Positions 13,501 through 61,900 of a DNA stretch of 64,000 nucleotides are shown here, piece by piece. Every line of letters begins with the position of its first letter. Positions within the stretch are counted from its first letter, which is position 1. The position numbers and the translations under genes are program-made. Under the pieces are notes generated by a model that saw only the letters and a program-made list of their open reading frames with translations, ran no database searches and had not been told where the DNA came from. Origin of the DNA: Nageia nagi (lineage: Eukaryota > Plantae > Pinophyta); the NCBI GenBank assembly GCA_050084985.1, contig JBITNC010000001.1:155558001-155622000 (forward strand). Reading direction: 5' to 3'.

Positions 13501-15910
13501 GTCTTTAGGGCATGCTTTGTTTAGGTCTGTAAAGTCTATACATATTAGAATCTTCCTAGTGGATTTCTTAACTAGTACCATATTAGAAATCCTATCAGAA
13601 TAGTCAATGGGATGAATAAACTTAGCTTCCAAAAGATTTTGTAACTCTTATTTTACCATTAGAGCAATTATAGGATGCATTTTTCATAGCTTTTATTTAA
13701 CAATTTTTGCACCCTCCTTTATACCAAGATTATGTACTACTAAATTTGGATCAAGTTCAGGCATATCAATATATGACCATGCAAATATTTCCTATTTTTC
13801 TTTGAGTATTGTAATGAACTCTTTTCTCTCATTTTTAGTAAGGGATTTTCCTAATTGAATAATTTTAGGGTTGCTAGGTTCATCACTCAAGTCAAACTCA
13901 ATGGTTTCCTTAATTAACATGTGGGATCTTTCCTCCATTTGGTTGCGTATTGGAATCCAATTATTATTGTTTGCATTATATTCTCCATCCTCACCTTCAT
14001 ATTGATCTTCCAAAGTAGTATTAATATTCAAATATGAGGTGTATAAGATTGCATCTATGTTCTTGAAATCTTGGATCATAGGTTGTTCAGGAATTAGTGC
14101 AAAATTCATAGTTTCTTCATCTACCAAAAATTACAAGGAAGAGCTACTTGAAGTTTTTGAGCCTATTATATCAAACTCATCACTTCTAGACCAATCAAAG
14201 TCCATTTTATGCATATGATTATCACATATTTCCATGATTTCTACCATATTAATTGACATATTAGAAAATAATCTTCCTAAAGATAACATTCTAGACTCCA
14301 TATAATCTTGATTTGTCATCCATTTAGATGTTTCAAACAAATTTTCATATGTTTTGGATTCTGGTTCTAGCTTAGTTATCTTACAAATAGATACTCCTTG
14401 ATTTTTGTTTCTATAACCTAATCCTATCTTATCACTGGATAATTGATAATGAATATCAATGGTGTACTTAGGTCCTTCTTCATATTTTCCTAAACCTTTT
14501 CCTTTCCATTAACACCTATCAAACTATCTTTGGATGAATGATGTTACATCTGATGATAAATATTATAATGAATTATAGAAAATACCTTTGTTAGACTAAG
14601 GTAAAGGGAGGATAGGTGGTTCTATTGAATCATGATATATAAAAAGTGTTTGATTAGGTAACTACCCCAATGGTATTAATTACCCTACCACACTAGGAGA
14701 CTCTTTAGGCCTTCTTATTTCTTGAGCTATAGGAATATTAAAAATGACATCTTTAATGGCAAATTCTCCTATTCCATAATATGTTAATCTTATAGTCATA
14801 GGATATATATTAGATGGTTTATCTTTTATTGTACTATTATAATTGGTGAATTCATGGGATATGATGTTTTTGATGATAAAACTTTGTTTGTTTCATCTAG
14901 ACTTCATGCTCTTTCTTCTCATGTTTATTTTTCTAGGAATGTCGATTTTATTTTTAGTAATGGATCCTTATTAATCTTTGGTGTATGAGGTATTTCAAGA
15001 TCAACAAGATCTTTCCCTTTTAATGAACTTAGAGAAGCACCTTTTTTGTTAATATTTACTATTGAAACCTTTTCAGGAACTAAAGGTGATATAAAATAAT
15101 GAGTAGAAGGTAAAGCAGTTTCTCTTGAAAGATGCATATAATTGCAATGGGAATATGGATTTTCATATCTAAGTACACAATGTACCACCCCATCATGAAT
15201 GTATTTTAGGTAGTTTTGATATGTTGATAGGACACATTGCATGTCTCTAATCCAAGGTCTCTCTAAGAGTAGGTTGTATTGCATTATATCTCCTTTAATA
15301 ATTTGTAATAATGTTTGTATGATTTTAGATCCCATAGTAATAGGTAATGAGATAGATCCCATTGTTGAGCACAAACCATCATTGAAAGCTCTTAATTGTA
15401 AATCAGGTGCACATATATGTGAAAAAGGAAGATTCAAGTTCTTATAGGCCATTGTAGAAATGATACTTATTGTAAAACCTTCATCTATTAATATCTTCTT
15501 AAAGGCCCTCCCATATATCTTGGTTATAATATGTAATAGAGGATCTTGACCTTGTGAATGACTTAATTGCCTAACTTTATGATCATAAAAGGCGATAGTG
15601 GGTTTTTGACTTGTCTTAATATTTCCCACAAAAGACACAAAGCTTTTAATATCATTAATATCCAACTCAATTATTTACAACAATTGGTTCATAACATCCC
15701 TATGATCTTTGGATTATTGTAGTAACTCAAACAAAGACATCTTCACTTGTGAGTTTCTTAATTGATGTTTTAAGACTCCCTTTATTGAAACCTTAAGAGG
15801 TTGAGCTCTAGGTATATTTGGTTGTATAATAACATCATTTGTTTGATTATTAAGAATATCAGCTTGTCTTCCTTGTGCCCTTTGGGCTCTTATGGTTATG
15901 CTTACCATAG
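10586..15910 (-). pseudogene. pol: pol: protease, G-patch, reverse transcriptase, RNase H, additional archaeal-type RNase H, integrase; many stops/frameshifts
   Basis: PR KKILIDEGFTISII; G-patch WKGKGLGKYEEG...KIGLGY (~14410-14510); RT ICIDFTDLNKACPKD, LMDGFS, YVDD; RH EKLCLVVVFATKKLRYY; aRH YFDGS..TNNNVEYEAL..IGDSLLIINQV; INT YWPTM..CVKCKQH, WALDLIG, YFTKWVE, KFAPNWLGPY; stop at 10586. Confidence 0.95.
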
Positions 15911-18413
15911 CAACAAAAGTAGAAGCATCCTAAAATGCTTTATGCTTTACTTGATTTTTGTGGGTATATGATGCTATGGTATTAGCTTGGTGTTGAGGAA
16001 GTGGATTCTGATATATTTCTAAATTTTGATTAGGGATAGTCAATGGGTTATCTACCTGTAATATTTCTTGATCAATCAAATCTTGAACCTTATGTTGTAA
16101 CATTCTACATTTGCCTATAGTATGACCCTTCTAACGATGGTAATGACAATAATAATTCTCATTATACCATTTACTATCTCTTGGATCTAGTCTTTGAGAT
16201 CATATTTTAGGTAATGTATTCATTTAATGTTCCATTAATTTTTTCAAAATATCATAAAGTGATTCAGTCAAAGGAGTAAACTTTCTAGGTGATGGCCTAG
16301 ATTTTCTTCCCTCATTTTGTGGAATAGGTATGTTTTGCAGAGGGTTTGGTTCTCCATATTTAAGATAAGAAAATTTATTAGTAGGCATTGGTTTTGTTGA
16401 TTTTTCTACCAAATTCCTATTTCTAACATAAGGTTCTTTCTTTTTATCTTTTAGCTCTCCATCCTGGATTTTAACCTTTTTGATTACAACATCTTGAGAT
16501 ATTGCTTTCTCAAACATCTTGTGTTGTTGAATCAATAAGGTACCAGCGATAGGTGTTAGATAAATTTGACTAAATATTTTCACTAGTTCTTCTTATGGTA
16601 GAGTATAAGGCATGCTTATCAAAATCACCCTCCATATTAAAATAAATTTTGTAACTATTTCATCTTAAAATTATTGTAATCTTATGAGATCAGTTATGGA
16701 GGTTTTATCTTTAATATTTATTCTAAAGTATTCTAAGAACAAGTTAGTCAATTGCACGTATGATGTGATGCTATGTTTAGTTAAGTTATTGTACCAATCC
16801 ATTGCTTGTTCAACAAGTGTCATAGGAAAGATACACAACATCAAAGCATCATTATTGGAAATTACATAGCTTAAATACTTAAAACATCTTAGATGCTATT
16901 TAGGATCATCCTTTCCTTTGAAAGATTCAATCTTTGGAATTTTGAATTTAAAAGGGATATCCATTTTAGGAACACTATAGTGTATGGGTTCATTACAAAT
17001 AATTTCATAAGAGACTTTATGCTTGTTTTGTTGGTGTAACATCTTTTCAATCTCTATTAACCTTTCATCGAAGTCATTAGTTGGTTGCGTATGCACGATA
17101 GGATATTTACTATCCCTATTACCTTCCCTTTGTTCATTTGTTGAAAACAATTGGTAACTTCTTTTGGAAGGTGTTTAATCACCATAGTAATTTTTACTAT
17201 ATGGTGGAGAAGGAGAAGGAGGTTGATATGGAGGCAATTGTTGTTGCCCCTATTGATATAAAGGTGTAGGAACATGATGTTTTTGAACCTCATGTTTGGA
17301 CTAAGATAAAGGGGTATTGAAGGTTGATGTTGCTCATGTGATACCTCCTTTATTTTAGGTAACTAAAGGTTTTGATTTTTATAATTTTTATGACCTTAAG
17401 GAGATAAGGATCTTACTCTAGATGGAAACTTCTCATTATCAATTATTTTTTGATTAGATCTATTTTGAAGTTGAGTTTGAACTTGTTGTTTGTTAAGTTA
17501 GCTTATTTGTGTTTTGCTTTGATATGCATGAAACACAAGCTATGTTTGCAAATATGAATTTTTCCTCGATATTCTAGGTTGATTTAATTTCTATATATCT
17601 AGATTATATAGAATAATGTTTTGGTTGGTCTAAAGATATTCCTAATTCTAATTTGATCTAAACACATAGGATGGTATCTCTTCTACCTTATACCTTGAAG
17701 GATCAAGATTTCCTTTATGTCTTTGTTTGGGAATTCCATGACTAGTCCTAGGGGTAATATGGGTCGTACTAGGATTCATGCAACTCGTAATAGAAGAAGC
17801 ATAACTAGTTCTAGGGGTAGGTGTATTTATTTTCAAAATATGATAAGCATTATTATACACCTTAGCATGGCTTCTTGATTCATATATTGGAGTAGCTGTA
17901 TGTATGGAAATTCTATCATCAAATTCATCCATCCTTTTATAGATGGTGTAAGGGGGATAATCATATCATCTTATATAGGATTGAATAAGATGTCCATTTG
18001 GTAGATAATGTGTAACATGATCATACTTAGCTTTAAAAGGACCCTTCTATAACATGACATAATTTGAATGCATTTGTGATGGGGTAAAGGTCCTTTAAAT
18101 AACTTCTTCCTCATTACCTATTGGTGTATCTTTGGCTAGATAATTTAAATATAATAAATACTATGAGCATGAGAAGAATGAGGAATCTTTTAACTGTGTT
18201 AAATGCTATCTTACTTTGTTTAAGGTATCTTCTATTTCTCAAGGAGTTCCTCTCCTTGATATGTGTCTGCTAGATTTATGAGACCTATAACTAGGTTGTC
18301 TTTCTTGGTAAGTTTCATCATAAGGCTCTCATTGATGATGAGCCATTTGAGAATGGGTGTGAATCATTCTCTTCTATTTTTTGAGACTTTACACTTTTAA
18401 ATTTTGTTTTCAT
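15910..18413 (-). pseudogene. gag: gag (retrotransposon gag domain + Tat-type CCHC knuckle), degenerate
   Basis: KFKIPKIESFKGKDDPK, RKFTPLTESLYDILKKL, WYNENYCHYHR*KGHTIGKC..LQHKVQDLID. Start approximate. Confidence 0.85.
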
Positions 18414-27202: not shown

Positions 27203-27807
27203 TTGTGCATTTTGGACTCAAATTTATATGTTTACTTTTTTATTATTGTTGTGAATGTTTGTGTTTTTCTATGAATTGCTAATCAATATATGATTTTGGT
27301 AATCAAAATATGATCTTATATAACCTAAAAGTCATAAAAGGAAGATGAACTTAATACCAAAAATTGCTCAAGATAGTTCAAAAATGATCATAATAAAATA
27401 TGAATGCAATATGAATAGTAATTATAACAATCCACCTAATGAAAATGAATAAGGTCCCAAGGTACCAAAAGGGATCTTGATGAAAATATACCTATTTTTC
27501 CTAAGATACGACATGACAACTAGCCTAGGACCAATTCAATACACTCAAAATTGTTCAAGGATGTTAGAAATACTATTGTTGAAAACTCTATCCTAGGAAA
27601 TGTACATCATTAGCGATGCAGAATAGGCCCCAAACATCGTTGGTAGTGTATTCAAAACTAAACTAGGTAGGGAAATAAAAGAACACAACAACGCATAAAA
27701 ACCTAGCAAAAAATAGACTTAGCACATACAAACAACTACTAACATGCATACAAACATAGAAAATATCTTATCTAACTAATATACAGTACATGCAAAAGTG
27801 AAGAAAT

Positions 27808-30113
27808 TTAAGCAATTACTTTGCATACTTGGGGAGATTTTTCCACCCAAATACACTTTGTAGAAGCATGGAAAAAAAGAGGCACCTTTACTTTAACTGA
27901 TTCCACACTATTGGTACCATGCAAATAGTGGTGTAAGCTGCTAGCGACATTTATTTTGGCTCCATTCCTAATCCCATTTGATGAAACATGTTTATATCCA
28001 TGATTATGAGCAAAATAATGATGCAACTCATTAGAAACACTTACCTTACTAATGCAACCTCTTGGTTGTGAAGAAGGTAGGGGATTACTAAAAACCCCTA
28101 ACTGTTCATTGTTAGGATATACAGGTCCAATATTTTTAGTAGCCTTATCATCCATTTTAATAGCCCCTTTATCAATGAAATCCTATATGATATGCCTAAG
28201 ATTCCTATAATTGCATGTTATATGTCTAGGTACCCTATGATAATTACAAAATTATTCATATCAAAAAATGCTTAGGCACACCATTAGGAAACTTAGCTCA
28301 ATAATGAGAGTTAACTCAATAAGATCTTCTATTAACAAAACATTAAGAATATTGTTAATAGTATTAGTCAAAGGTTTAAAATTTTGCCTAGGTTTAGAGC
28401 TAGTTTTGTGCTTATGAGAAACATTATTTACCTCTGTCCTATTGGTATTCTCAGTGATTGGTTTCTAATTTTGAGCATTGTCATTGTTCCTCATAGCATA
28501 TAATTTTTTGATACATGGCTCTTTGTTGATAACAATGTATATCATATCTCCTAGTCTCATATCATGATTAGAGATAATAAATAATTTATATATGGGTAAT
28601 AGACCATTTGCAAAGGCATCTTTCAGATCTTGTTCAAGCATAGTTATTCTATTAGCCATTTATTTCCATACTTATGCAAATTTCTTGATAGATTGATTAG
28701 GTAATTGCTAAATTTTGGATAAATCCTTGAAATAAACATTCTCAACAATATTGTACCTAAAATTTTGTAAAAATAAGTGAATCAAATCCTCATACTTGTC
28801 AACACTTTTCTCAAGAAGCTGAAAATACCACTTTAGTGCATCATCCTTCAAACTATGGGAAAATAAGTTAGGTAACAAATCTGGATCATTTATGTATTCT
28901 ATAGCTTCTTCTTGGAATTTTCTAACATGCATCTTAGGATATTGCAAACCATCAAACTTAGTAAATTTAATACTCTTTTTCCTAGTGAGGACCTTAGCAG
29001 TAATTCCATCAGTTAAGGGTCTCTTGAGACAAGATAAGAAATCATCCTCATCAACCATAGCATTTTTAGGTGCCATATTTATTATATTGGTTGAGTTACT
29101 TTTTGGGGATGGTGAAGGGGTTTGAGGGGGATTTTGTGTCTTCTTAAGTTTAGCCTTGTTTAAGGCAACAAATTGACCTATTCGATTAACCCTTTCATGC
29201 TCTAGTTTATCGAGTATTTTAGCTAGGACCTCTAAATATTTCTGTGGGGGTTCTTTGTTCCAACTAGCAGTATCTTGAACTTCAAGAAGGATACTAGTTT
29301 TGATATGACATTATTCTAATGTCCAATTAGGTTGTAATTTGTAAGTGCCATTAATCATTTTATCAAGATGTTGGTTGATAAGAGTTTTAGGATATTCTTC
29401 TTGCATAATATTCTTATCTTTAGAATTTGTACCTTTTTTAAAAGAAATTAGGCTTAAAGAGGAGGTAGATATAATCTTCATCATCTTCATCTTAAGCATC
29501 ATCCATGGAATTTTCATCATAATGATTTTCATCAAGGGGTTGTGTGCCCTCTTTGTTTATCTTAGGATTAAGACCTACATCATCTATGTTCACATCATTA
29601 ATGCTATGGTCATAGTTTGGCATGCCACTAGCATCATCCTCTTTGTGATTAGACACCTTCCATTTTTATGTTCCTACAAATTCATAAGAAAATAGGCTAT
29701 CCTTTGAATCTATAGCCATAGAATGCTCTTTGATTAATTCATAGTTAGTCAAAATATTAGTCACAAGAAGAGAATTATTTATAAGATAAGATTCCAATTT
29801 TTTCCTTTTAGATAACTCTTCTTGAATAGACCTAGTATAACAAGGGATTCTATCTAGTTTCAAAATTATCAGAAGGGTTAGATTGATTTTCCATGTTCTC
29901 AAATTTGAAAGGATCAATGGTAGCATAACTTTGAGGAGTTTCACTAATAATATCAATTTTCTTGCTAGAATGTGAGGATTCAGTGTCACTATGAGCATCA
30001 GGAAGGGGTTTGTGGATAGGTAAGTTAGGATTATGCCAAACAATTCTCCTAAGCTCACTAAAGTGGACTTTCAACCTCTAGGATACTTTAGGGTTTTCTA
30101 TATTAAGGTCCAT
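27808..30113 (-). pseudogene. gag: gag, degenerate; not followed by pol
   Basis: KFDGLQYPKMHVRKFQEEA..LFSHSLKDDALKWYFQL (ORF 28708-29076); knuckle FCNYHRVPRHITCNY..II*DFIDKG (~28170-28250); NEQLGVFSNPLP. Confidence 0.85.
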
Positions 30114-34560: not shown

Positions 34561-35699
34561 TTAGATGAACCATTAAATACAAACACTATCCTTGACTTGC
34601 TATCATCATCAATTATCTTGAGTGCTATTATATATTTTCATCTAAACATCATCACTTGAGCATTAGTCATCAAGTATGAAGCATAATCTTAACATATTGG
34701 AAGTCAACACTAGAGCCTATTCCTCCTTTACGATCATTTAGTACTGGAGACTTTGTGGTATGACAACAATCACTTATATACCTCCATAAAAATGGCTTAT
34801 CTTTGTCCTCACTTATCAATAACACTAGCATTATCTATTCATCATGTGATATGTATCCTTATCACATTATCATATCATCATTATCATGCCATCTTTATAT
34901 CATGATCTATCATATCATCATTGTCATCATAGCCATCATCATTAGCATTATCCTCATCATTATCATTGTCATTTCCTCATCAATATCTTTGGACACTTTC
35001 ATCAAGTGTTCCTCTCATATTAGAATCATAATCATATCATCATAGGTACATATCTTTGAGGTTTATTCAAATCTTCATCATTATCACTTCTCATTGGCCT
35101 CATTTCTGATAAGGATATAACCACATGGGTCAAAATCATATAATTGGGTTGCCTTATACCACTCCTTTGGGAGTGATCATATATTGTTGACTATCATGAT
35201 TTCTAAGAGAAACATAGTCTTATGAAACAAGTGATAATGAATTTGAGATGGATGAATATCTTCACTCACACTTTGTCATTATTAGTTACTAATAAACAAA
35301 CATCATTTTATCAAGATCAAACATTAAGTAAAATCATATAAGATCAAGATAATTTATTTTCTATCAAATAGTTCATCAAAGAAAAATCAAGAAAATTATT
35401 TATTTATAAAACTAAATCTTTGAGCATATATCATATCAAGCAAGCATATCTTGGCATATCAATCATGGTCAAATTGAGAATCAATATCATATCATGAGTT
35501 TTTGAGCATATCAATATGAGTGATAATTGAGCACTTATCAATGAATTGATGATGTTTTGTTTACATCACCTTATTTTCTATGGTATGAGAATTTATATAT
35601 CAACTATCTTAAGTCTTACTCAATACCACATTGATGTCCTAGCATATCAACAACATATCATACATTGTGGATTTTAACACTATCACTTGAGTATTATCA

Positions 35700-36212
35700 T
35701 CTTTGCTTTCCATTTACCATGGGGCAAAAACATCATTTGAATAAAGCTCCTTCCTTTCCTTCCATTCAACATGGGGTAAGGTTTATCATAATCATTTCTC
35801 CTTTACTTTCCATTTAGCATGGGGCAAAGGTATCATTTAAGCACTTTCCTTATTGCTTTTTGTTCAACATGGGGCAAGATTTATCATTGTCTTTCCTTTG
35901 ATTTTCATTCAATATAGGAAAGGTCATCCATTTTTTGTCTTTACTTTCCATTCAACATGGGGCAAAGTTATTGTTATATTTCTTTATTTTCATTGAGCAT
36001 GGGGTAAGATTGAGCACTATTTTTTCCTTTGCTTTCCATTCAACATGGGGAAAATATGTCTTGAGCATTATCATCTTGGTTTTTGCTTTAATTTCTATTC
36101 ATCATGGGGGAAATTTATCCTTAGAATACCTTACCTTCTATTCAATATAGGGAAATAACATAATTTATCACCTATAATAAGGTCATTGCTACCATTATTT
36201 TTGCTTTGCCTT
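35700..36212. repeat. 3'-UTR tandem array, ~45-55-bp units with core TTTCCATTCAACATGGGG
   Basis: About ten copies. The array resumes at 44871 after the hAT insertion. A second copy lies at 54670-55330. Confidence 0.9.
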
Positions 36213-36471
36213 TAGCAAAACTTTTAAGGGATAAATTGAAAAATCATGGCTATACTTATTGATTTTTTATTTTCATTTTGACTAATACAACACATGGTGG
36301 GTCCTTTCTTAATGCCAAAATTTTATAAAAAGATTTAAATTTGTACACCTTGTAGCCAACAATTATACACATATTTTAATATATTGACATTTTCTAAACC
36401 TATTTTAGGTCCTTCTCCTTCAAGTTGTAGAAATAAAATATAATTCTGTCCAACTCACCAGTTATATGTTA

Positions 36472-36509
<38 letters not shown>

Positions 36510-36542
36510 GTATGCATGTATATGTACACACACACACACATA
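36472..36542. repeat. Compound microsatellite (TA)n(TATG)n(CA)n
   Basis: Direct reading. Confidence 0.95.
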
Positions 36543-36639
36543 TCCATCTCTCCTTTGATACCACCACATCATAAAGGAGAAAGTTAAGAAAATTGTATTT
36601 GCACTCATTTTGTGATTATGCAATCCAATAAAGTATCTT

Positions 36640-37350
36640 TTGCAATTGGACTAAAATCTTATAGTTACGACCAAATCTTAAAATAAATCTTGTAACTAGT
36701 TCAGAACCTCCTCTCTGCAATTGACTCATAACCTTAATCTTGTAACTAGCTCACAACCTAAATCTTGCAAACAATTCAAAACCTCCTCTCTGTAATCAGT
36801 TTAGAACTTGAACCTCCTCTTTATAACCAAATCAAAACCTTAATTTCACAATTGGGTCAGAACCAAGGAACATCCTCTTTGTAACTAGACTTAGAATCTT
36901 CTCTCTAAAGTTGGGCTAAAAACTGAACTTCCTTTCTATAATTGGGTTGGAACTTATTTTTTGCAACTAGGATAGTAACTCCTTTATATAATAAAATCAT
37001 AACCTAATTTCTATAATTAGGTCAAAACCTTCATTTCACAATTGGGTCTTATTCTTGTAAACAACCTAGAGTATCCTTTTTGTAACTAGGTTAGAACCTC
37101 CTTTCTGTAATCGATTTGGAATCTCCTTTCTACAACTAAGCTAGAACCTCCTTTCTATAGACAAATTGATACCTCTTATCTATAGTTGAACTAATATCTC
37201 TTCTTTTTAGTTAACTTGATATCTATTCTCTATAATTGACATAGTACCTACATTCTTAAGCTGGTTTGGTACCTTAGTTCTATATAACCAATTTGGTACC
37301 TCCATTTTGTAATTGATTTGTTACCTATATTCTTTATTTCTACAACTAAG
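36640..37350. repeat. hAT subterminal tandem array, ~25-30-bp units (GAACCTCCTYTCTRYAACTRG-like)
   Basis: About 20 degenerate copies upstream of the transposase. Confidence 0.85.
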
Positions 37351-37699
37351 AAACATACACCCATCCTTGATAAAATCTACCCTAGGTATGATATGTTAAG
37401 TTTATCCTCTTATTGCATTGAACTATTAAATTTTAATATTTTTCTTTATGTTAATATAAAAATTATTTTATTTAGATGAAATCTCATCCACTTCTAGCAG
37501 TGATGCAAGGCTTAGTTGTAACAAAGGTGTAACAATATGCTTTTTGATAAAGATAAATAATATTATATCATATTTTAAATAACTAAAAAATAGATGAAAA
37601 ACCAACCCCAGGCTTACTAGGTAGATTCACTTTAAATATATGTGTTCTAAGTTATTTGTAAATTTCATTTTTCAATTTAGATAGTTTTCAATGCATTAA

Positions 37700-40080
37700 A
37701 AGTAAGAATATTTATGTACAAAAAATACACCAGATATGACATCACTTGAAGAAGAAATTTTTGCTGATGAAATGTCAGATGATCTACATCAAAATTTAGT
37801 CTAAATGAACTAAAACCTACTAAGGAAAATAATGATAATAAGATAGGATCTCAAGAACCCATAATTCATAAGAGATATTCCAATTATAAGAGAAAAATTA
37901 AGTGGAATGTAGGTAGAACATTTAAGGATGAATTGGTAGGAGCATATTCTATGTTTGAACCTGTACAATTGAAAAGTAATTTGAAAGAACCAACTAAGTG
38001 CAAAGTGCATATATTGCAGTTGGGAAATAAAAAAAGAACATAGAATGTGACTAAAGAAAGATATAGTTTAGAAACATTATGGGAAAAAATACAACTATGA
38101 AGAAGTATATGGTAAGCAAATAAGAGTTATTAGGCAAAAACATAAAACATAATAACTTCATATTAAATCTCAAAATATGTATGAAAATGAGATGAAAAGA
38201 AAGAAGAAAATATCTAAAAAGGGTGGAATAATAAATCAACATATGGGGAAAGCTAATCAGGCAAATCTAATTGCTAAGACTATTCATTTTTTAACTACAT
38301 TTCAAATGTTGAAAAATGGAAGGCCAACTCATGATATTTCATTATACAAAGAATGTTTTCAATTTTTAGGTGTATAAAATTTTAAATTACTATAATACAA
38401 TTGGTATAAGACTAGTTCTTAGGATATTGCAAATAATATAGCAACTATTGGGAAGCAGGATTTGTAAGAGAAGGTAAGAGATGCAAAATTTATTTCATTA
38501 TCCCTTGATGATGTGATGACTATTGATTATACATATTGGGTTTGCTTACATGTTTATACTTTTCAAGAATAAAAAAATGAGATAGCCTCAATTGCTAGGA
38601 TTAAAAAAATATCACAAAGTTTTAATGCTAAAAATCTATGCAATTTGGTTGTAATTTTTCTAAAGGATATAGAAGGAATCTATAAATATAGCATATCCAC
38701 CAAGTTGATATGTGTAGGGGTTGATGAAACATATATGACATAAGGAAATAAAAATGATCTTTTTGTTAGGCTTCAAACATACTATGCACATTACATGATA
38801 CCAATTCATTGCATGGATCACAGAATGAATATTTCTTACAAAATAGTTAACAATTTTGAAATTATTGTTAAGGTTGAAGAATTGGTTCATGATATACATT
38901 CTTATTTTATCAATATTTGGAAAACATAGAAGGGTTTCAATAGTTTGCATAAGGAGACTAGAGTAATATATGGTAAAAAAATATTAAATGATATTCATAC
39001 TAGATAGATTTCTTTATATCTTCTTACACTTAGAGTATGCAAAGAATATATCTCCTTAAGTGGGTATATGTGGTAGAATCAAACGTAGGTTGATAAAGAA
39101 AAATATTTGCTATACAAGTTAATAAATATTGAAACATTACTCACTTTATGTGGTATTATACCCATGTTGAAGGAAATGCATAATGTGATAAAAATAGATC
39201 AAATAAGAAAATATACTTGTCTAGATAACTTCATGGGTGATATATTTGAACAATAGCAAGTTGTGGTTGATCATCCAAAAAGCTTCTTGAAATTTGATCT
39301 CATGGGTAACCTTTGTATAAGTGTTCATGATAAATTGATTTCAATGCATTGTTATTATAGGAGAGATGATATTTATATCAAGGGTTTAGAAGAAATACCC
39401 TTAACATTATAATTATTTGATCATATTATTTTTGATGTAAGAAGAAAATTGCATAAACTATCAGAAATGATGTCAAGTGAAATAAGAGATTGATTTAGCA
39501 AGGATGACTTGGTGGATTCAATAAGTATCATTCACCCACATCTTTGATCAAAAGATAGTGGTTGTATGAGTTCAATATATAAGAAATATGTAGGTAACCT
39601 TATGAATCATTTTTATCAACATGTTGATATCAACAAACTCAAAATTCTTGGTATTCTAGATAAAAGAAGTTGACTGATCAATCACACCAATTCACTATTT
39701 CTATGTATGAATAATATAACCAATTGAGTGAAATAATAGAAAATGGATCAATAGTAATATTATGGAGTAGATTGTATCCAAGTACAATATTGCAAACACA
39801 AATAAGAAAATATTTTTAATTATATGAATTATATCAAATAATGATTTTAGGATTTATGGAGGATGAATTATTTTTGAATGCATTGGATTATATAAAATCA
39901 AAAGTACGAAACAAATTAGAAAAGAATTTGGAAACATGTTTAAGAATTTATACATCAAAACATAACTTAGATAATTTCTTGTATGGTAAGGATCTTGCTA
40001 TCTAAGATTCAATGGAAAACAAAAGAGGAGCTTCTAGGACTGAAGTTTTTGGAAACACACAAAACATAAAAGTGTAAGTA
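37700..40080 (+). pseudogene. hAT transposase (ZNF862/TTF-zinc-finger type), degenerate
   Basis: FISLSLDDVMTID (~38490, first catalytic D region), IPIHCMDHRMNI (CxxH, ~38800), DIHTR*IS (TRW, ~38990), ILGFMEDELFLNALDYIKSKVRNKL (dimerisation domain, ~39845). Confidence 0.88.
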
Positions 40081-40184
40081 ATTAATAAAGATGACTTCTA
40101 CCAACAAATTATGATAGGGATTATTTTATATTTTCATTTTTGTGAATTTTCAATCATGTTATTCAAATAATTTTTACTATATGC

Positions 40185-40440
40185 AATTGGAACAATTGTG
40201 TTACATTATGCAACCATTCTTGTAACAATTTATTCTACAACTGAATTGATCATAGATAATTATACAACTAAACCAATCACAAATCATTCTACAACTGTCC
40301 TGATCACAAATGACTCTATAACTATCTCATTCACAAATCATATTGCAATCATCCTAATTACATATTATTACTCAACCATCCCAATCATAGATGTTTACAT
40401 AACTATTTTGAACATAATAAATTAGGCAACCGACTTGGAG
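40185..40440. repeat. 27-bp tandem array between the two hAT genes
   Basis: Repeating TTCTACAACTRN..GATCACAAAT units. It generates the spurious Thr/Ile-rich ORF 40198-40425. Confidence 0.8.
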
Positions 40441-40699
40441 ATAATAAATTGTAAAATATAATATTTTACCAATTAACAAACTATAATTAAAAAAATACTA
40501 AAAGATAATTTGAAAATACAAGTACAAGTTAAGATAGTAAGTTATGAAAATACAAATTTTTCTTGTATTAATCTTCATGTCATTTGTTAACAATATATAT
40601 AATGTATAAAGCCAAGATGCCAAATTGATAAATAAAAAACTAGTATCCTTTGACTATCATTGCATATTTGAACAAAGTACAAATAAACTAAATTATCTC

Positions 40700-43600
40700 A
40701 CTACCACTCCCAACCACATTATTAATAGGAATACATTAAGTGATAGTCTCACTAATAACACTAACTAGATGACCCTCAAACCCAATAATAGGGTTGAGTT
40801 GGTTAGCTCCCACTAATGCAAAACCTTCCTTGATAATAGTTTATGTTTCTTTCATAAATATATTTTGCCTAAGCATGTCATTTGAAATTGAATCTAACTC
40901 AACTAATATATTTCTTTGATCATTTTTCTGGATCAGTTGTATGCATATAACAACCACTTTATTTTTTCTTCTTTAGAAGAATTTTAACATCAAGATTGTG
41001 TTCTTGAATGATCTTTTTCAAGATATTATTTTCTAGCTCCATGTTGATTTTTTACTATTTTCTTTAGCCTACTCAAGAATGCTACTCTTTGCATTTTTTA
41101 CCTTCACTTGCAGTAAACTAGTTGTCTTCTTCAAATTTTCAAATTTTCTTGCTTTGAAAATATCAAAAAATATTACTATGTCAAAATTATAAATAAAGAC
41201 TAAAACTTGTAATATTTATTTAAAGTTAATTTAAATAACACAACTTACTGCATAAGCATCCTTTTTTGCAAGAGCTTCAACCAACATTTTTTGGTCATAT
41301 ATCCATTTGTTGAAAAATGGTTGGGGTTCACCATTGATATTTTTAACGTATTCAAAGCATGGTTGAGAACATCATCATTTATTTTCTTGGAAAATATGAA
41401 TCTCTATGTGATTTTATCTTGAAGTAAATTATCAATTATTACCACATTATATGCAATGAGGTCATATAATTTATTTCAATGACTATGGTTATAACAATAT
41501 GCATTTATCTTAGAAATAAGTTTTTTGGCCCACTATTTCCTAATGATTAATTTTTTAGTTTGGCAATAAGTGTTTGACCAATAGTTGTTAGTGCCTCATC
41601 TCCTGTACAATATGAAGCACTAAAATATAAAGGTTATTTATCAATTTCTTACTTGACTTCATTAGAGCTAGCTTTGGAGCTATGCTTAGGTTAACTTCCC
41701 TAAGTCTTGGAAGGTCAGGCTTTTTAGGATGAGGCTTTTCTCTTCTAATTGCATCATGTGAGTCATACAAAACTAGAGCACTATTACCATTAATATTTTT
41801 TATGAAAACTTGAAATGATATCTTCTAAATGATTATCATTGAGATCATTCAAGTTTATGAGGTTGATTAAACTATCCTCTAGTATATATAAGCCCCCAAA
41901 ATTACTACGAGGCACTGGAAAAGGAAAGGACACATTGCTATCTACTCAAAATATCTACACACAAGTGTCTTTTTGTCCCATAATTTTCCTACACATTTGT
42001 TGTTGTGGAGGTGATGGAGGAATCATTTTTTGATTATTTTTAACCTTTCAAGGTGAGTTGCTTTTCTTTCTAGTTCTTATAATTCATAATAGAAAAATAA
42101 ATTAATAGCAAACCCTATATCAATCTTAATGCAACAGGTCTAATTAGAGATAATTTAGAACTGGTTCAATTGCAGATAGTTTGTAACTTGATCAATTGCA
42201 AATATTTTAGAATTGGTATGGTTGTAGGTAGTTTAGAACTGATTTAGTTGTAGATAGTTTGGAACTGGTCTAGTTGTAGATATCAAATTTGCAATAAGCT
42301 ATTTGTAATTGAATAGATTCTAAACTATCTACAACTAGACCAATTGCAAATTCTAAAATGATTGAAAATTATCTACAATTGGAAAAATTATAAACTATCT
42401 ACAATCAAATCAATTACAAATTATTAGCAATCAAACTGGTTACAAATTATCTACAACTAAATCAGATCCAAACTATCTCCAATTAGATCAATTCCAAACT
42501 ATCTATAGCAAGATCAATTACAAACTATCTACAATCAATCCTATTCCAAATTTAATGATTTGAAATCGAAGTGATTTCTTTTTTAGCACTCTATAATTAA
42601 AAATAAAATAATTTACTTGGAATCCTAATAATTGGAATTGGAATTGGAATTGGAGCTACACTTGCAGTGGCTATTAGAGTATGAAATATTAAGCTTGAGA
42701 GGGGTTTTGGTGTGTGTACAGCTTACATGGATAAGCTTTCTACAAAAATTAAAGAAGTTAATTTATAGCTTCAAATATATAAAGGAAACACAAAATATGG
42801 TTAAAATATTATCATCATGCTACTAATACTCCTCATTTGTTACCTTTGATGTGTCCTCTTCACCATCATTAGGGTCAAAATTAAGGACAATAGCAATAGT
42901 GTTTCTCTTGTATCTACTCTATTTCTTTGGGAAAAATGTTGGACTTTTTGATATAGTGTTAAAATCACCAAGAGCTTCCTAACCACACTTTCCTTTCATT
43001 GTAGCAAACCTTTTGCCTTTTACAACATCAACCTCTTTCTACACAAAGAATTTAAAAACATAAATTTTTATAGCAGTAAAGATAGGAAACAAAAATATTT
43101 ACCAAAAAATATTTTTTAACAAGAAAGAAAAACTTACCTGAAGCTATACCAGGATAAGACCAACATTTTGTATCGTTTTATGTTGTGATATGGGTGGTGT
43201 TGTAATATGCAAGTTAAAAAATCCCTCATAGTATAAACTAAGAATAAAAAGAGTAGAATGCACATCACCACTAGTAGAGCTTTTCACCTTTAATCTTACT
43301 GGAAATATAGGTACAACAATTGAATATTTATCTATTAAGGTAATAAAATAATACATGATAAAGCCCACTTTGGTAAATCTATCTTTTTTTGCTAAAGAAT
43401 CACTTTGGAAAAAAAGAAATTATATAACCCTATAAAAACTTCATTGGTAATTAATTCAATTTGAATTCCCCTCTTCATTTGCTATGAAATGACTGCAAAA
43501 ATAATAATTTATTAAAAACTAAAATTATATGCTTTGTAAATGAAACAAAAAAGGAATCATCTAAGAAAATAAAAAATTGTAATAAGTTATTGTAAATACA

Positions 43601-44005
43601 TTCAAGGAAGTATTTATTGACATTATAATGCTCTTCAATATAACATTTTTCCTAATTACTAAAGAGTATATCAGAGTGCATTGATTCAACTCCCTCAAGA
43701 GGTAATCTAATAAACTGCTTTATGTCCATTACGTTGAATGAAAATGAGAAGTTATTACCCCTATTTTTTGATACAATATTCATAATATTTGAATTTATGT
43801 TATAGCTCTCTAAAATTATATTTAGTAGAGCTAACTCCATTGCAAACTTAGGATTGAATAACAACCCACCTAATCTTGACTGGTTTACCTAATTATTCTT
43901 AGCATCTAGATTATTTATTTTGTTTAGGAAGATCTATAAATCATTAATAGGGTGGATCTTGAATTTCACATCCTTTATGCTTACTCTAAACATATTGTTG
44001 GCCAT
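40700..44005 (-). pseudogene. Second, intron-containing gene inside the hAT: N-terminal PMD/DUF1985-like domain, C-terminal coiled coil
   Basis: ATG at 44005 is in frame (through two TAG) with ORF 43652-43864: SRLGGLLFNPKFAMELALLNIILESYN..FSFNVMDIKQFIRLPLEG. The next exon has KSSTSGDVHSTLFILSLYYEGF. GT..AG introns at ~43599-43493, 43137-43039 (CAG/GTAAG), 42616-~42076 and 41248-41176. Last exon ARKFENLKKTTSLLQVKVK..MELENNILKKII. Confidence 0.62.
42135..42550. repeat. Fold-back array of 26-bp units (direct then inverted) in an intron of the second hAT gene
   Basis: TAGTTTGGAACTGGTCTAGTTGTAGA-type units at 42150-42282 and their reverse complements AAACTATCTACAACTAGACCAATT at 42320-42550. Confidence 0.88.
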
Positions 44006-45146
44006 ATTTTACAGGGGAGTGGTGATCCAAATCCTTAATTTGTATGAAGACTTGTAGATGCAAAGAAACATATGAAATTTGTAAGAAACCTAAGAAATTT
44101 TAAATTCTAGCCACATAAATAATGGGAGAAGCACAAAAAGCAAATAAGTTTAGAGAAAAATGATTTACAAATATGAAAATATAAAAAATATAATTTACCA
44201 TACTAAATTCTTTATGTTGGACATTAAAATATTATCGTTGACTCCTCTATTGCCTCTCAAATGCTAAAAATCTCTGTAATGTAGTTAATTTTAATATAAA
44301 AATCCTTTGTCTACTCTATTCTCTAACTTGCTCTACATAAAATGATCATTTTCAATGTTAAAAGTACTTATATAGAGATCATAATAAATGTAATTTGATT
44401 TAGAACATGTGTCATACTATGAGATGCCATGTACAAAACCCTGATGCTATCTCATTTATATACTTTATGCATCTATCTTAGTTGCTTATCCTTTGCAATC
44501 TAGCCAATTGCATGTATTATAGAGCCATACTGGTTACATACATCTTACAACCATGATAGTTTCATGTGTTATATTTTAGAGATGGTTGCATTTATTATTT
44601 AATTAGCTCGATTGCATGTCGAATGCAACTGACTTGGTTGCATCCCTTATGGTTTGTGATTGGTTATTAGTATAAGATATCTTGCTTATAAATTTACATA
44701 AATTTTGGATTTTCACTAGTATTTTACATCTTATTTTAGAATTTATTGATATATTGCCTACCAATTTATATAATTTTTGGAATTTCATAATTAATTCAAA
44801 CTAGGTTTATTGTATATTCACCAAGAATTTATAGGTTTGATTTAGAGGAGGGGTATTAAAATTTTCTTTGTTTGCCTTCCATTCAAAATGGGGTAAAGTT
44901 TTCTTTTAGTGGCATGATCATACTATTGAGAATGACTTACCTTGAGTCTCAAGCATTTAGTATAGCCATTAATTAGTCACCTTTGCATTAACTTTATAAT
45001 TTGAGAATGCCTAGCATTTTTCCCTTAATGTGTGGTAGGTTTGCATACCTATGAATAACATTCACATCAACAAAAAATCATTAGTAATTGGTTATTAATA
45101 ATCATTATTAATACCTCATTGATTGTCATCAAAACATCAACATAAT

Positions 45147-54662: not shown

Positions 54663-55702
54663 TAAAAACTCCTTCCTTTCTTTCCATTCAACATGGGGTA
54701 AGGTTTATCATAATTGATTCTCCATTGCTTTCCATTTAGCATGGGGAGAAGGTATCATTTGAGCATTATTTCATCTTAATTTCCATTCAACATAGGGAAT
54801 GATTTATTACTATTTATCTTTATCTTCATTTGGCATGAGGAATTATTTATCATCATTAATTATCTTTCTTTCCATTCAACATGGGGCAAGGTCATCACTT
54901 TTTTTCTTAATTTCCATTTAGTATGGAGTAAGGGTTTATCATTATGTTTTCTTTTGTTTTCATTCAACATAGGGAAAGGTATCGTTTATCATTATTAATA
55001 TTACTTTCCATTCAAAATGGGTAAAGATTTATTATTATATTTCCTTCTTGCTTTCCATTCAACATGGGGAAAGATTTATTATTTTTTTTCCTTTGCTTTC
55101 CATTGAACATGGGTAAGATTGAGCACTATTTTTTCTTTTCTTTTCATTCACCATGGGAAAAAAATGTCTTTAGCATTATCATCCTATTTTTTTCTTTTCT
55201 TTCCATTCAACATGGGGCAAATTTATCCTTATTTAGCATAGGGAAATGTTATCATCATCATTATCACTTGCAATAAGGTTTCTACTACCATTATTTTTGC
55301 TTTGCCTTCCATTCAACATGGGTTAAAGTCTCCTTTTGATATCATGATCATATCATTCAGCATGACTCACCTTGAGTACCAAACATTTAGTATAGTCATT
55401 AGTTAATCACCTTTGCATTGACCATATCATTGAGATCATTTAGCATTTTTCCCTTAGTGTGTGATAGGTTTACCTACCTACACATACCATCATGTTAATA
55501 AAATATCATTATTTATTGATCATTAATAATAATTAGAAATATTTTATTGATAATTACCATTCCATCATTTAATATTATAGATACCTTATTGAATATTAGT
55601 ATAATCATTCATCATTTATCATTCATAAATAGGCATCATCATTAACTTTAGCTTTATAGTTGAGTTTCATATCTTGTGAAGCTCATCTCAAAAGGGGACA
55701 TC
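54663..55702 (+). repeat. Duplicated 3'-UTR (tandem array + PPT) lacking the hAT and nested LTR insertions
   Basis: Colinear with 35740-36212 + 44879-45146 + 53762-53859. PPT AAAAGGGGA at ~55690. Confidence 0.85.
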
Positions 55703-58961: not shown

Positions 58962-61900
58962 TGTAACATTACACCACCCTATATACACTAGATTAGATTT
59001 GCTTTTGTATTTTTATTTTTTAATTTAAATCTCTAATATGGCCCAAAGATAAATGGTGTTATTAATAGATTCATCAAATATTTACTATTATCCATGCATA
59101 GCTAATGTTTGAATTTCTAAATTTCACTTGGAATTTCTAACATATCACTTTTTCTTCAGTTCTTGACTATTATTTTTCATTTTTGTTAGTTGTTCCTATC
59201 TATGTATCCTATTTTTTTATGATCTACTAAAGGTACTTAGGAACCTCTTCAATGATCACTATCGGGAGACTCTGAAAGTGCATTGACCAAAAATAGTCTT
59301 ATTAGGTGAAAAAGAGTTTTCCTAGATGTAAATATGAGCTCCCAAGATTGTGTTCCATTTTACATGAGGTGACATCATCCTATACATTGTTGCATTGCAG
59401 GGGAAATGTTGTTGCATTGTGTTTTCCATGAGCTAGCATTAGTAGTACTAATGTTGCATCATGACTAAGGAGTTACAAAAGTCATTTTACTCAATATCAT
59501 ATTTTCTAGGAGTTGATATCATCATTTACATTATCACATCCTAGAAAAGGTATTACAAAGACCTTATTACTCAATATTGCATTTTTTGCAAACTAATATC
59601 AACATTATAAGTGTTGTATCTTGGATTAGGAGTTGTCAAGGCTATTTTTCTCAATGCTACAATTACCAAGATTTGATATCATCATTTACCTTATCACATC
59701 CTAATAAAGGCTTTACAAAGGTATTAGTACTTAATATCATACTTTTCCTGAGATGAGAGAAACATTTACAATATCACAATGCAACCAAGGAGTTATCAAA
59801 GTTATTTTATTCACTACCATGATCATTAGAAGTTGATATCATCTTGCACATTACCACCTTGTGAGGGAAATGTTGCCACATCATATTTCCTATAAGTTGA
59901 CGTAAACATCTTCAGTGCCGCATTATGGTTAAGGAGATATAAAGGTTATTTTGCTCAATGATACGATTTTCTTGAGATGACATCATCATTTACCTTACCA
60001 CATCATGAATAAGGTATTATTTTTCAATGCCATAATTTCCCTAAGATGATTTCATCATTGTTAGTGCCACATCATGGCTAAGGAGTTACAAAGACTATTT
60101 TTGATCTGAAAATTTGGATCCCTTCAACATTTAGTAATCTCCATTTCAGTATGTTCATTGTAATCATCTTGTCTTCAGCTTTCCAATGCTTCTTTCGGAT
60201 CGAGAATCCGAGTCCGTATGTGGAAGTTATGGCTTTAAGTCCAGTTTAAGTATTTTTGAAAAAAAAAAAAAAATCAAAAAATATGGCGGGACCCGCCTGC
60301 CACCGTGGAGGCCACGCAGGAGGAGAAGGACCCGCCAGACCACGTCGTGACAAACCCGCCTGCCACAGAGGACCACGTCAGAGTCAAAAGGGACCACGTT
60401 GGAGTCAAAAGGGCGCACGTGGAGGTCAGAGGAGGTGACGAGGCGGGGAAAAGACCGCCCGCGTGACAGGGCCGCGTGGAGGATGCTGAACATTTGACCG
60501 CCCGACGAGCCGCCCACGCCAGCCCGCCTGACCGCCTGCGTCACCGCCTGACCAGTCAGCCTAGCCGCCCGTTGACCAGTTGACTTCTGCCCAGAACGCG
60601 CCACGTGGCAGCACCACAGCGCACCCGCCCAGTTTTGATTTATTTAACGTATTTTGGTGTTTTGCTAAGGTTTTTGGCGATTTTTGATTCGTTTAAGGTC
60701 CCATTTTTGGGCTGAGTTAATTTTTAAGCCTGTAACAGTTCAGAGGGCATTTTTTTCAGTTTTAAAAATTATTTTTAGGAGATTTTGGAAACCATTTGAG
60801 TCCAAATTTGATAGGAAGATCTAGGAGGTTAATGGGTATCTTAAAATATATTTTTTTCTAAATTTCAGAGTTGTAATTCTCTCTAATTTTAGCTCAAAAA
60901 GTTGTATAAAAAGGGAGCAAATTGTACAGAAGAGATTAAAAGGAGGATTTCGGGAATTGTTTCAGTTTTGTTGTGATTTTCAGAGCTAAGAGTGTTTTGT
61001 GAATGTGAGAGGAGGTTTTGAAGGACCAAGAAGGCCTTGTAAAGTGATTCCATCCATTGATAGTAGAGAGCTTTTGAGCTTGATGTAGCCCACATTGGGT
61101 GAACTAGGATAAATTGTGCTTGTCTCTTCTTTGGTGAATGCTTTTCTCTTCTCTGTGTTTACAAGTTTATTCCTGATTTTCCTTTACAAGCACTTAATTA
61201 TTTAAGTGTGAATTGATCCATTTGAAAGGTTAAATTTGAAAAATTGTAATCTTATAGTTTATGGATCAATTTTACTCAATGATGCATTTTCCTTGAGATG
61301 GAATTATCATTATCAATACCATGTCATATATAAAGAGTTATAAAATGTAATTCTACTCAATGCTATGATTTCTAGAAGCTGATATCACTATTCTTACTCA
61401 TATATTTTGGTTGATATCATCACCTTTGAAATGTGATAGTGCTTCTTTCACCGTTTCCTACATCAAAATAAGGTTTCTATTGATGTCATCAAAATTAAAG
61501 TATGGTAATGCTACTTTCATACTTTCCTATATCATGATAAAATTCCTATTGATGTCATCAACCTCAAAGTGTCGTATTGCTTCTTTTACCCTTTCTTGAA
61601 TCGTATCAAGGTTTCTACTAATGCTATTAGCCTCAAAGTGTAGCAATCCATATTATGTACTATTTGACCATGCTTACTTCATATTTGACTGTATTAAACC
61701 TTCTATTGTTCATAGTAGCTCAAATTCTTGCATTTCATATTGTACATGAGCTAATATCAACATTGATAATACCACATTATGGGAAAAAGACATATATTAT
61801 TATTATGAAAATTGATGTCAGTATACTTCTAGTAGAACATCCTGGGAGGGCAAGGATAACACTAAAATACTTATTCTCAAGTTGTTCATAATTTTTATAT

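Follow-up and report, generated by a model that had tools for sequence, protein, structure and literature searches.

The 64,000-nucleotide stretch of the Nageia nagi contig JBITNC010000001.1 analysed here (positions 155,558,001 to 155,622,000 of the forward strand; hereafter the window, in whose own numbering all positions are given) contains a dead 8.66-kb transposon of the hAT type at 36213-44870. Its transposase gene is faced by a second, spliced gene on the opposite strand (gene 2), and arrays of a short repeated motif occupy its non-coding DNA. The product of gene 2 is fairly likely to have the PMD/DUF1985 fold, a reading reached through one homolog, the Taxus chinensis protein KAH9291728.1, and not through the window's own exon. 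We propose that this product would bind the repeated core motif in the element's non-coding arrays, including the one in gene 2's own intron, and that the motif-bound protein would keep the element's promoters free of silencing marks, as VANC does for VANDAL transposons. The whole chain, from a two-gene hAT to a motif-binding, VANC-like anti-silencing protein of PMD/DUF1985 fold, has in our judgement a little less than an even chance of being correct; within it, three links are hypotheses only, namely that the protein binds DNA, that the motif is what it binds and that silencing is thereby countered. The initial annotation had described a two-gene hAT with a chromatin-modulating accessory protein. 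One insertion with two genes was indeed recovered, together with motif arrays that the initial annotation had not mentioned, while the chromatin function is a hypothesis.

The limits of the element are given by an exact 8-bp target-site duplication (TSD), TTTGCCTT, at 36205-36212 on the left and 44871-44878 on the right, and by reconstruction of the empty site. The duplication had been claimed in the initial annotation and is borne out on both sides. When the two flanks were joined minus one TSD copy, they gave an unbroken alignment to 54917-55551 (664 columns, 75%, E 1e-115), and in this uninterrupted paralog the left flank stops at 55308 and the right flank begins at 55309. Because the rejoined flanks align unbroken to the paralog, the 8.66 kb at 36213-44870 arrived as an insertion, and as a single one. 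The target was one unit of a ~47-bp tandem repeat; this repeat region is present in two copies, at 35680-36200 (the insertion target) and at 54670-55240, which are ~73% identical. Terminal inverted repeats (TIRs) of 15 bp stand in register with the TSD at 36213-36227 (plus strand) and 44856-44870 (minus strand). They are degenerate, with 10 of 15 positions identical and three of the five mismatches being transitions, and are weak taken alone. The element is heavily decayed, with a GC content of 27.5% and an observed/expected ratio (o/e) for CpG of 0.08. Over 36640-44870, CHG o/e is 0.24-0.94 inside the element versus 0.06-0.15 in the flanks, which fits a younger insertion together with the motif content; the contrast is no evidence of methylation protection.

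That the element belongs to the hAT superfamily is well supported by the transposase motifs, by the protein clusters nearest to the transposase's database relative and by the 8-bp duplication. The dead transposase lies at 37780-40075 on the plus strand, has an uncertain 5' end and falls in the DUF4371 / FAM200-ZBED5-RNase / ZNF862-like group. Its frame over 38150-39574 (plus strand) contains 16 stops in 475 codons, where the two alternative frames contain 42 and 59. The motifs SLSLDD (38495), GVDE (38717), HCMDH (38807), HTR* (38996) and MEDE (39856) stand in what we take to be the hAT order, and presumably represent DDE-type, CxxH and RW-type motifs. One database protein (P0004) matched the transposase, with E 5.5e-46 and 37% identity over 38000-39001. 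The nearest ESM Atlas clusters of this protein, with scores of 0.91-0.94, are DUF4371, FAM200-ZBED5 RNase-like (PF27073) and ZNF862-like, which we take to be hAT-derived families. The element shares with these transposases the ordered DDE-type, CxxH and RW-type motifs; the clusters are mostly animal, whereas this is a plant lineage with few recorded proteins (one match). The window's own decayed transposase gave no Pfam match, and the C-terminal dimerisation domain PF05699 gave none across 39700-40074, where the MEDE and KSKVRNKL motifs are found. GT donors at 37386, 37527 and 37621, followed by AT-rich stretches to an AG (37386-37680), suggest short spliced 5' transposase exons. A metagenome scan for relatives returned two loci, L001 and L002, each of which ends inside the transposase; the L001 protein is 36% identical to the transposase over 38207-39670. 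No related loci were found in the viral contigs or prokaryote genomes scanned.

Gene 2 runs on the minus strand, convergent to the transposase, over ~770 codons and six or seven GT-AG introns. Six introns (44198-44090, 43599-43493, 43137-43039, 42843-42740, 42616-42045 and 41248-41152) are 109, 107, 99, 104, 572 and 97 nt long, with a GC content of 15-26% versus 29-37% in the exons; in the five short introns (97-109 nt) it is 15-23%. A candidate seventh intron of 50 nt (41652-41603) joins two frames in phase. These introns uphold the earlier claim of a plus-strand transposase opposed by a minus-strand gene with at least four canonical introns, and the peptide patterns that had been quoted for this gene occur in its translations. 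An intron filter, partly circular in that it was tuned on the gene 2 introns themselves, returned five distinct introns on the sense strand and none on the antisense strand; for the same length of DNA outside the element it returned ~0.35.

Read along the minus strand, gene 2 begins with an exon upstream of intron 1 (44090-44198, with an alternative donor at 44203). Exon 2 (43600-44089) is homologous to three database proteins, P0005, P0006 (Taxus chinensis KAH9291728.1) and P0007. Exon 3 (43138-43492), which contains GDVHSTLFILSLYYE and one frameshift, is followed by exon 4 (42844-43038) and by exon 5 (42617-42739), a Q-rich linker whose phase-consistent frame has four stops and whose other two frames have one each. 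Intron 5 (42045-42616) is the 572-nt intron and contains a 26-bp array. Exon 6 (41653-42044) has a P/Q-rich start and a weak acceptor site, exon 7 (41249-41602) depends on the 50-nt intron (41603-41652) being real, and the last exon (40738-41151) carries a K/E/Q-rich stretch and then a likely frameshift. In the predicted product of ~770 residues, exons 2-3 would supply a globular N-terminal region; linkers rich in K, Q and P, a stretch that looks helical and an end rich in K, E and Q would make up the rest. A terminal coiled coil, proposed in the initial annotation, was not confirmed, its heptad score being matched by 256 and 193 of 300 shuffles.

The modelled frames of gene 2, which were picked post hoc and leave ~100 codons unscored, contain 23 stops in 680 scored codons versus 54 and 77 in the shifted frames. 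At least one other frame has fewer stops than the modelled one in exon 5 and in the opening part of the last exon. The exon translations show at least four frameshifts and no open frame. Stop density is the same in the two genes, at 3.4%, which suggests that both were intact when this copy inserted and that they died together. It is likely, in our view, that gene 2 was carried intact within this element when it transposed.

The non-coding DNA of the element holds a 25-bp tandem array upstream of the transposase (36640-37350, plus strand, ~23 units with a shared core motif), a 27-bp array between the convergent genes (40170-40440, plus strand, ~8 units), the 26-bp array in intron 5 (42130-42550, minus strand, ~15 units in two oppositely oriented halves) and a weaker, unstranded motif cluster upstream of gene 2 (44440-44680). 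A core of ~10 bp is common to the 25-, 27- and 26-bp arrays. Matches to a deamination-tolerant 10-mer pattern, written after the arrays had been viewed, number 36 within the element and 19 in the remaining 55.3 kb, the order-2 Markov expectation being 6.0 +/- 2.5. With a cut-off of 9 bits, a matrix from the left array alone, its unit set chosen by a pattern written after all arrays had been seen, detected 17 sites in the 572-nt intron, two in the 301-nt intergenic array, none at the right end and 11 in the 55.3 kb outside; at 7 bits the counts were 22, 7, 3 and 46, respectively. Unit profiles constructed with no preset pattern coincided at one and the same core whichever two of the three arrays were paired, with 0, 1 and 2 of 60 shuffles scoring as high; tandem copies are non-independent, and one of five negative-control pairs also came to 0 of 60. 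When entire units are compared, the relationship is clear between the intergenic and intron arrays (z 9.2) and weak for the right cluster (z 4.2-4.4), whereas the left array aligns with none of the others (z up to 2.7). The three clusters around gene 2 are thus related to one another, and there is moderate support for a core shared between them and the left array.

Many units of the intron 5 array have the core on both strands, and its two halves make up a long, imperfect palindrome, with arms of 131 nt that are 74% complementary, through which the pre-mRNA could form a hairpin. A miniature inverted-repeat transposable element in intron 5 was considered and rejected; the 8-mers on either side of the array consist of low-complexity A/T, and no TIR follows them. 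The L002 locus also has an array upstream of its transposase (115-600, ~17 units of 24 bp), of a different unit sequence and with no demonstrable core in common with the window arrays (28, 4 and 7 of 60 shuffles). This difference suggests that arrays may turn over between hAT families.

The kinship of the three clusters raises the alternative of a compound locus, in which gene 2 and these clusters would be a separate element or module that inserted into the hAT and whose own TSD and ends have decayed. Such an origin would agree with the intergenic, intron and right clusters being related (z 9.2, 4.2 and 4.4) and the left array standing apart, and the CpG depletion indicates decay strong enough to erase short signals. 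However, no LTR-like repeat (LTR, long terminal repeat) and no TSD-plus-TIR pair was found around gene 2: none of 11 exact 9-10-bp direct-repeat pairs there is followed by a TIR (10-12 of 15 positions mismatched), and the regions flanking gene 2 show no mutual alignment above shuffles (z 1.5 and 2.4). One inverted pair, 40124-40147 / 44163-44186, was set aside, being one among 228 such pairs and showing no TSD on visual inspection. A younger, inner TSD should be visible because the outer one has survived exactly. The equal stop density of the two genes and the core common to the gene 2 clusters and the left array also argue against two insertions. We consider the compound locus improbable and retain the earlier view of a single element.

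As for the identity of gene 2, an exon 2 search of 1.84 billion proteins gave four matches, of which two are Logan proteins (P0005 and P0007), one is the Taxus chinensis protein (P0006) and one is a bacterial YDG repeat protein (P0008, E 5e-4). The last was dropped as a repeat artefact, and the other three matched at E 1.5e-5 to 7.2e-5. Compared by features in the ESM Atlas, P0006 lies near Streptophyta clusters without a family name (0.94) and DUF1985 clusters (0.93; 10% and 69% of members). By predicted structure, two rows reach the bar for naming, and both are PMD clusters (template modelling scores of 0.60/0.72 and 0.59/0.69). All named Atlas rows for P0006, that is DUF1985, PMD, PF29561 and DUF7745, are Streptophyta clusters. 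PMD-C and DUF1985/VANC are described as structurally alike (bioRxiv 2024.09.27.615353; PMC13547354). Two AlphaFold models had predicted local distance difference test (pLDDT) values of 39.9 and 43.7, and fold searches with such poor models gave no match. A search for longer homologs found none, either with exon 2 alone or with a four-sequence alignment, both being weak negatives, and sequence searches of the PDB returned nothing at useful E-values. The PMD-like identity claimed at the outset therefore stands as an indirect likeness through the Taxus homolog, but not as a direct domain match of the window exons.

Several points weigh against the proposal. Pfam scans covering all modelled gene 2 frames gave no match to PF10536 (PMD) or PF09331 (DUF1985) at E up to 1, either for the window exons, which are separate decayed fragments, or for P0005-P0007. 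Homology extends over ~105 of the 770 codons and reaches PMD/DUF1985 in two steps, through P0006. The model of that protein has a pLDDT of 0.61, its top feature-ranked Atlas clusters have no Pfam family in 24 of 30 matches, and its tail does not match exon 3 significantly (48 of 500 shuffles reach the score). P0005-P0007 are known here as proteins alone, without genomic context, and the two-gene layout is known from one full-length copy, since L001 and L002 end inside the transposase. The post hoc frames and matrix units, the control pair, the left array's lack of whole-unit alignment and the weakness of the right-end cluster, all given above, belong to the same side. Transposases alone can give sequence-specific activation of cognate copies (bioRxiv 2026.08.24.746577), so the arrays need not serve gene 2. 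Furthermore, exon capture by transposable elements is very common in gymnosperms (PMC13477047).

Gene 2 could on that account be passive cargo, a whole intron-containing PMD-like gene of host or transposon origin captured by the hAT in the manner of Pack-type elements, with arrays that are either transposase-binding or neutral. hAT transposases bind subterminal repeats, and a single copy of the element was observed, both of which suit a capture. Mutator-like elements (MULEs) captured genic PMD-C twice (PMC5418596). The captures described in gymnosperms are mostly single fragments, often first or second exons (PMC13477047), whereas gene 2 is a complete gene of 7-8 exons. The array that enlarges its intron 5 aligns with the intergenic one and has a core in common with the one upstream of the transposase, and two of the arrays are situated 2.3 kb and 4 kb away from the closest end of the element. 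Capture as passive cargo seems unlikely to us.

Another alternative is that gene 2 was a true accessory gene with a different job, either as a transposition cofactor, like MURB for MuDR, or in targeting, its PMD likeness being superficial or irrelevant. The missing direct domain match for the window exons would be in keeping with this, as would the large part of the gene 2 protein that has no assigned relative, and MURB provides a precedent, binding its transposase and supporting insertion (PMC12973397). Nevertheless, the family-named Atlas rows of P0006 are the four Streptophyta families listed above, and an array within gene 2's own intron fits a self-recognising DNA reader. A different job for gene 2 is, in our view, rather improbable.

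The anti-silencing reading is modelled on the Mutator-like VANDAL elements of Arabidopsis. DUF1985 is present in VANC proteins, and the short motif to which VANC21 binds is arranged in tandem repeats, located upstream of the transposase and within introns of VANB and VANC (PMC5735166); VANDALs have degenerate TIRs (PMC10398659). VANC is described as similar to MAIN and as dicot-specific, with an origin in the capture of a MAIN-like protein of the host, and coiled coils are predicted to mediate its oligomerisation (PMC13547354). Like a VANDAL, the Nageia element is a DNA transposon with degenerate TIRs and a separate, intron-containing accessory gene, and a DUF1985-type domain would be present in both, here by way of P0006. 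In both, tandem repeats with a short motif also lie upstream of the transposase, in intergenic DNA and inside an accessory-gene intron, the support for the left-array core being moderate in our case. In contrast to VANDALs, the element is of the hAT type with an 8-bp TSD, has two genes and not three, and has a gymnosperm host where VANC is called dicot-specific (PMC13547354). Binding and demethylation, which characterise VANC, are predictions for gene 2. The element is a hAT and not a VANDAL, and neither PMD nor VANC identity is demonstrated for its second gene.

In angiosperms, PMDs occur in Gypsy elements and as MULE transposase fusions (PMC5418596, PMC12973397, PMC8616336), and the domain has been described as confined to angiosperms (PMC8616336). 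The PMD-A of Ty3/gypsy elements and the PMD-C of MULE transposases, like gene 2 if it is correctly read, place a PMD-like domain on a transposon, and an anti-silencing role of transposon-encoded PMDs was proposed by the authors of these surveys, which covered angiosperms (PMC5418596; PMC12973397). Gene 2 differs from them in being stand-alone, convergent and spliced within a hAT, with neither a fusion nor a retrotransposon open reading frame, and in having no PF10536 match. Exceptions to the premise that hAT elements encode a transposase only have been published: rust fungi have a TET-carrying hAT7, a hAT with a second gene (PMC12730594). This element of Puccinia is similar in pairing a hAT with a second gene of possible chromatin role. 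It differs in being fungal, with a 7-bp TSD and a TET/JBP dioxygenase, which in three described families lies upstream and in the same orientation as the transposase; the text examined of that paper mentions no motif arrays (PMC12730594). A literature search found no hAT paired with PMD, DUF1985 or VANC, with Repbase, supplements and most subscription literature outside its coverage. What we describe is a new combination of known parts, in one dead copy.

Elsewhere in the window, decayed open reading frames on the minus strand at 13800-18000 and 27800-30070 resemble what we take to be gag/protease pieces of Ty3/gypsy elements. Three pairs of long direct repeats with 75-84% identity (19026-20942/61269-63210, 45144-45875/53031-53758 and 21631-22306/30280-30923) are probably old LTR pieces. 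The region 60001-61000 is GC-rich (44%) and has a 138-codon open frame on the minus strand and a 21-bp repeat.

We tentatively suggest that a gymnosperm hAT lineage may have possessed its own VANC-like system, consisting of a DNA reader of PMD/DUF1985 fold and co-evolving motif arrays. If true, sequence-specific anti-silencing by this fold would be neither Mutator- nor dicot-specific, and a VANC-like system either would have arisen separately in hATs or would have moved across superfamilies as a gene-plus-motif module. The association of the PMD/DUF1985 fold with transposons would also extend beyond angiosperms, and a hAT accessory gene of this kind in a gymnosperm would broaden the anti-silencing strategy with respect to hosts and transposons alike. 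Whether genic or transposon PMDs came first is stated to be open (PMC5418596), and a gymnosperm PMD/DUF1985-like gene would provide an outgroup for that question. Gene 2 and the arrays present a new candidate protein-motif pair, and the value of this dead copy is that it points to a family whose members can be sought in public conifer assemblies.

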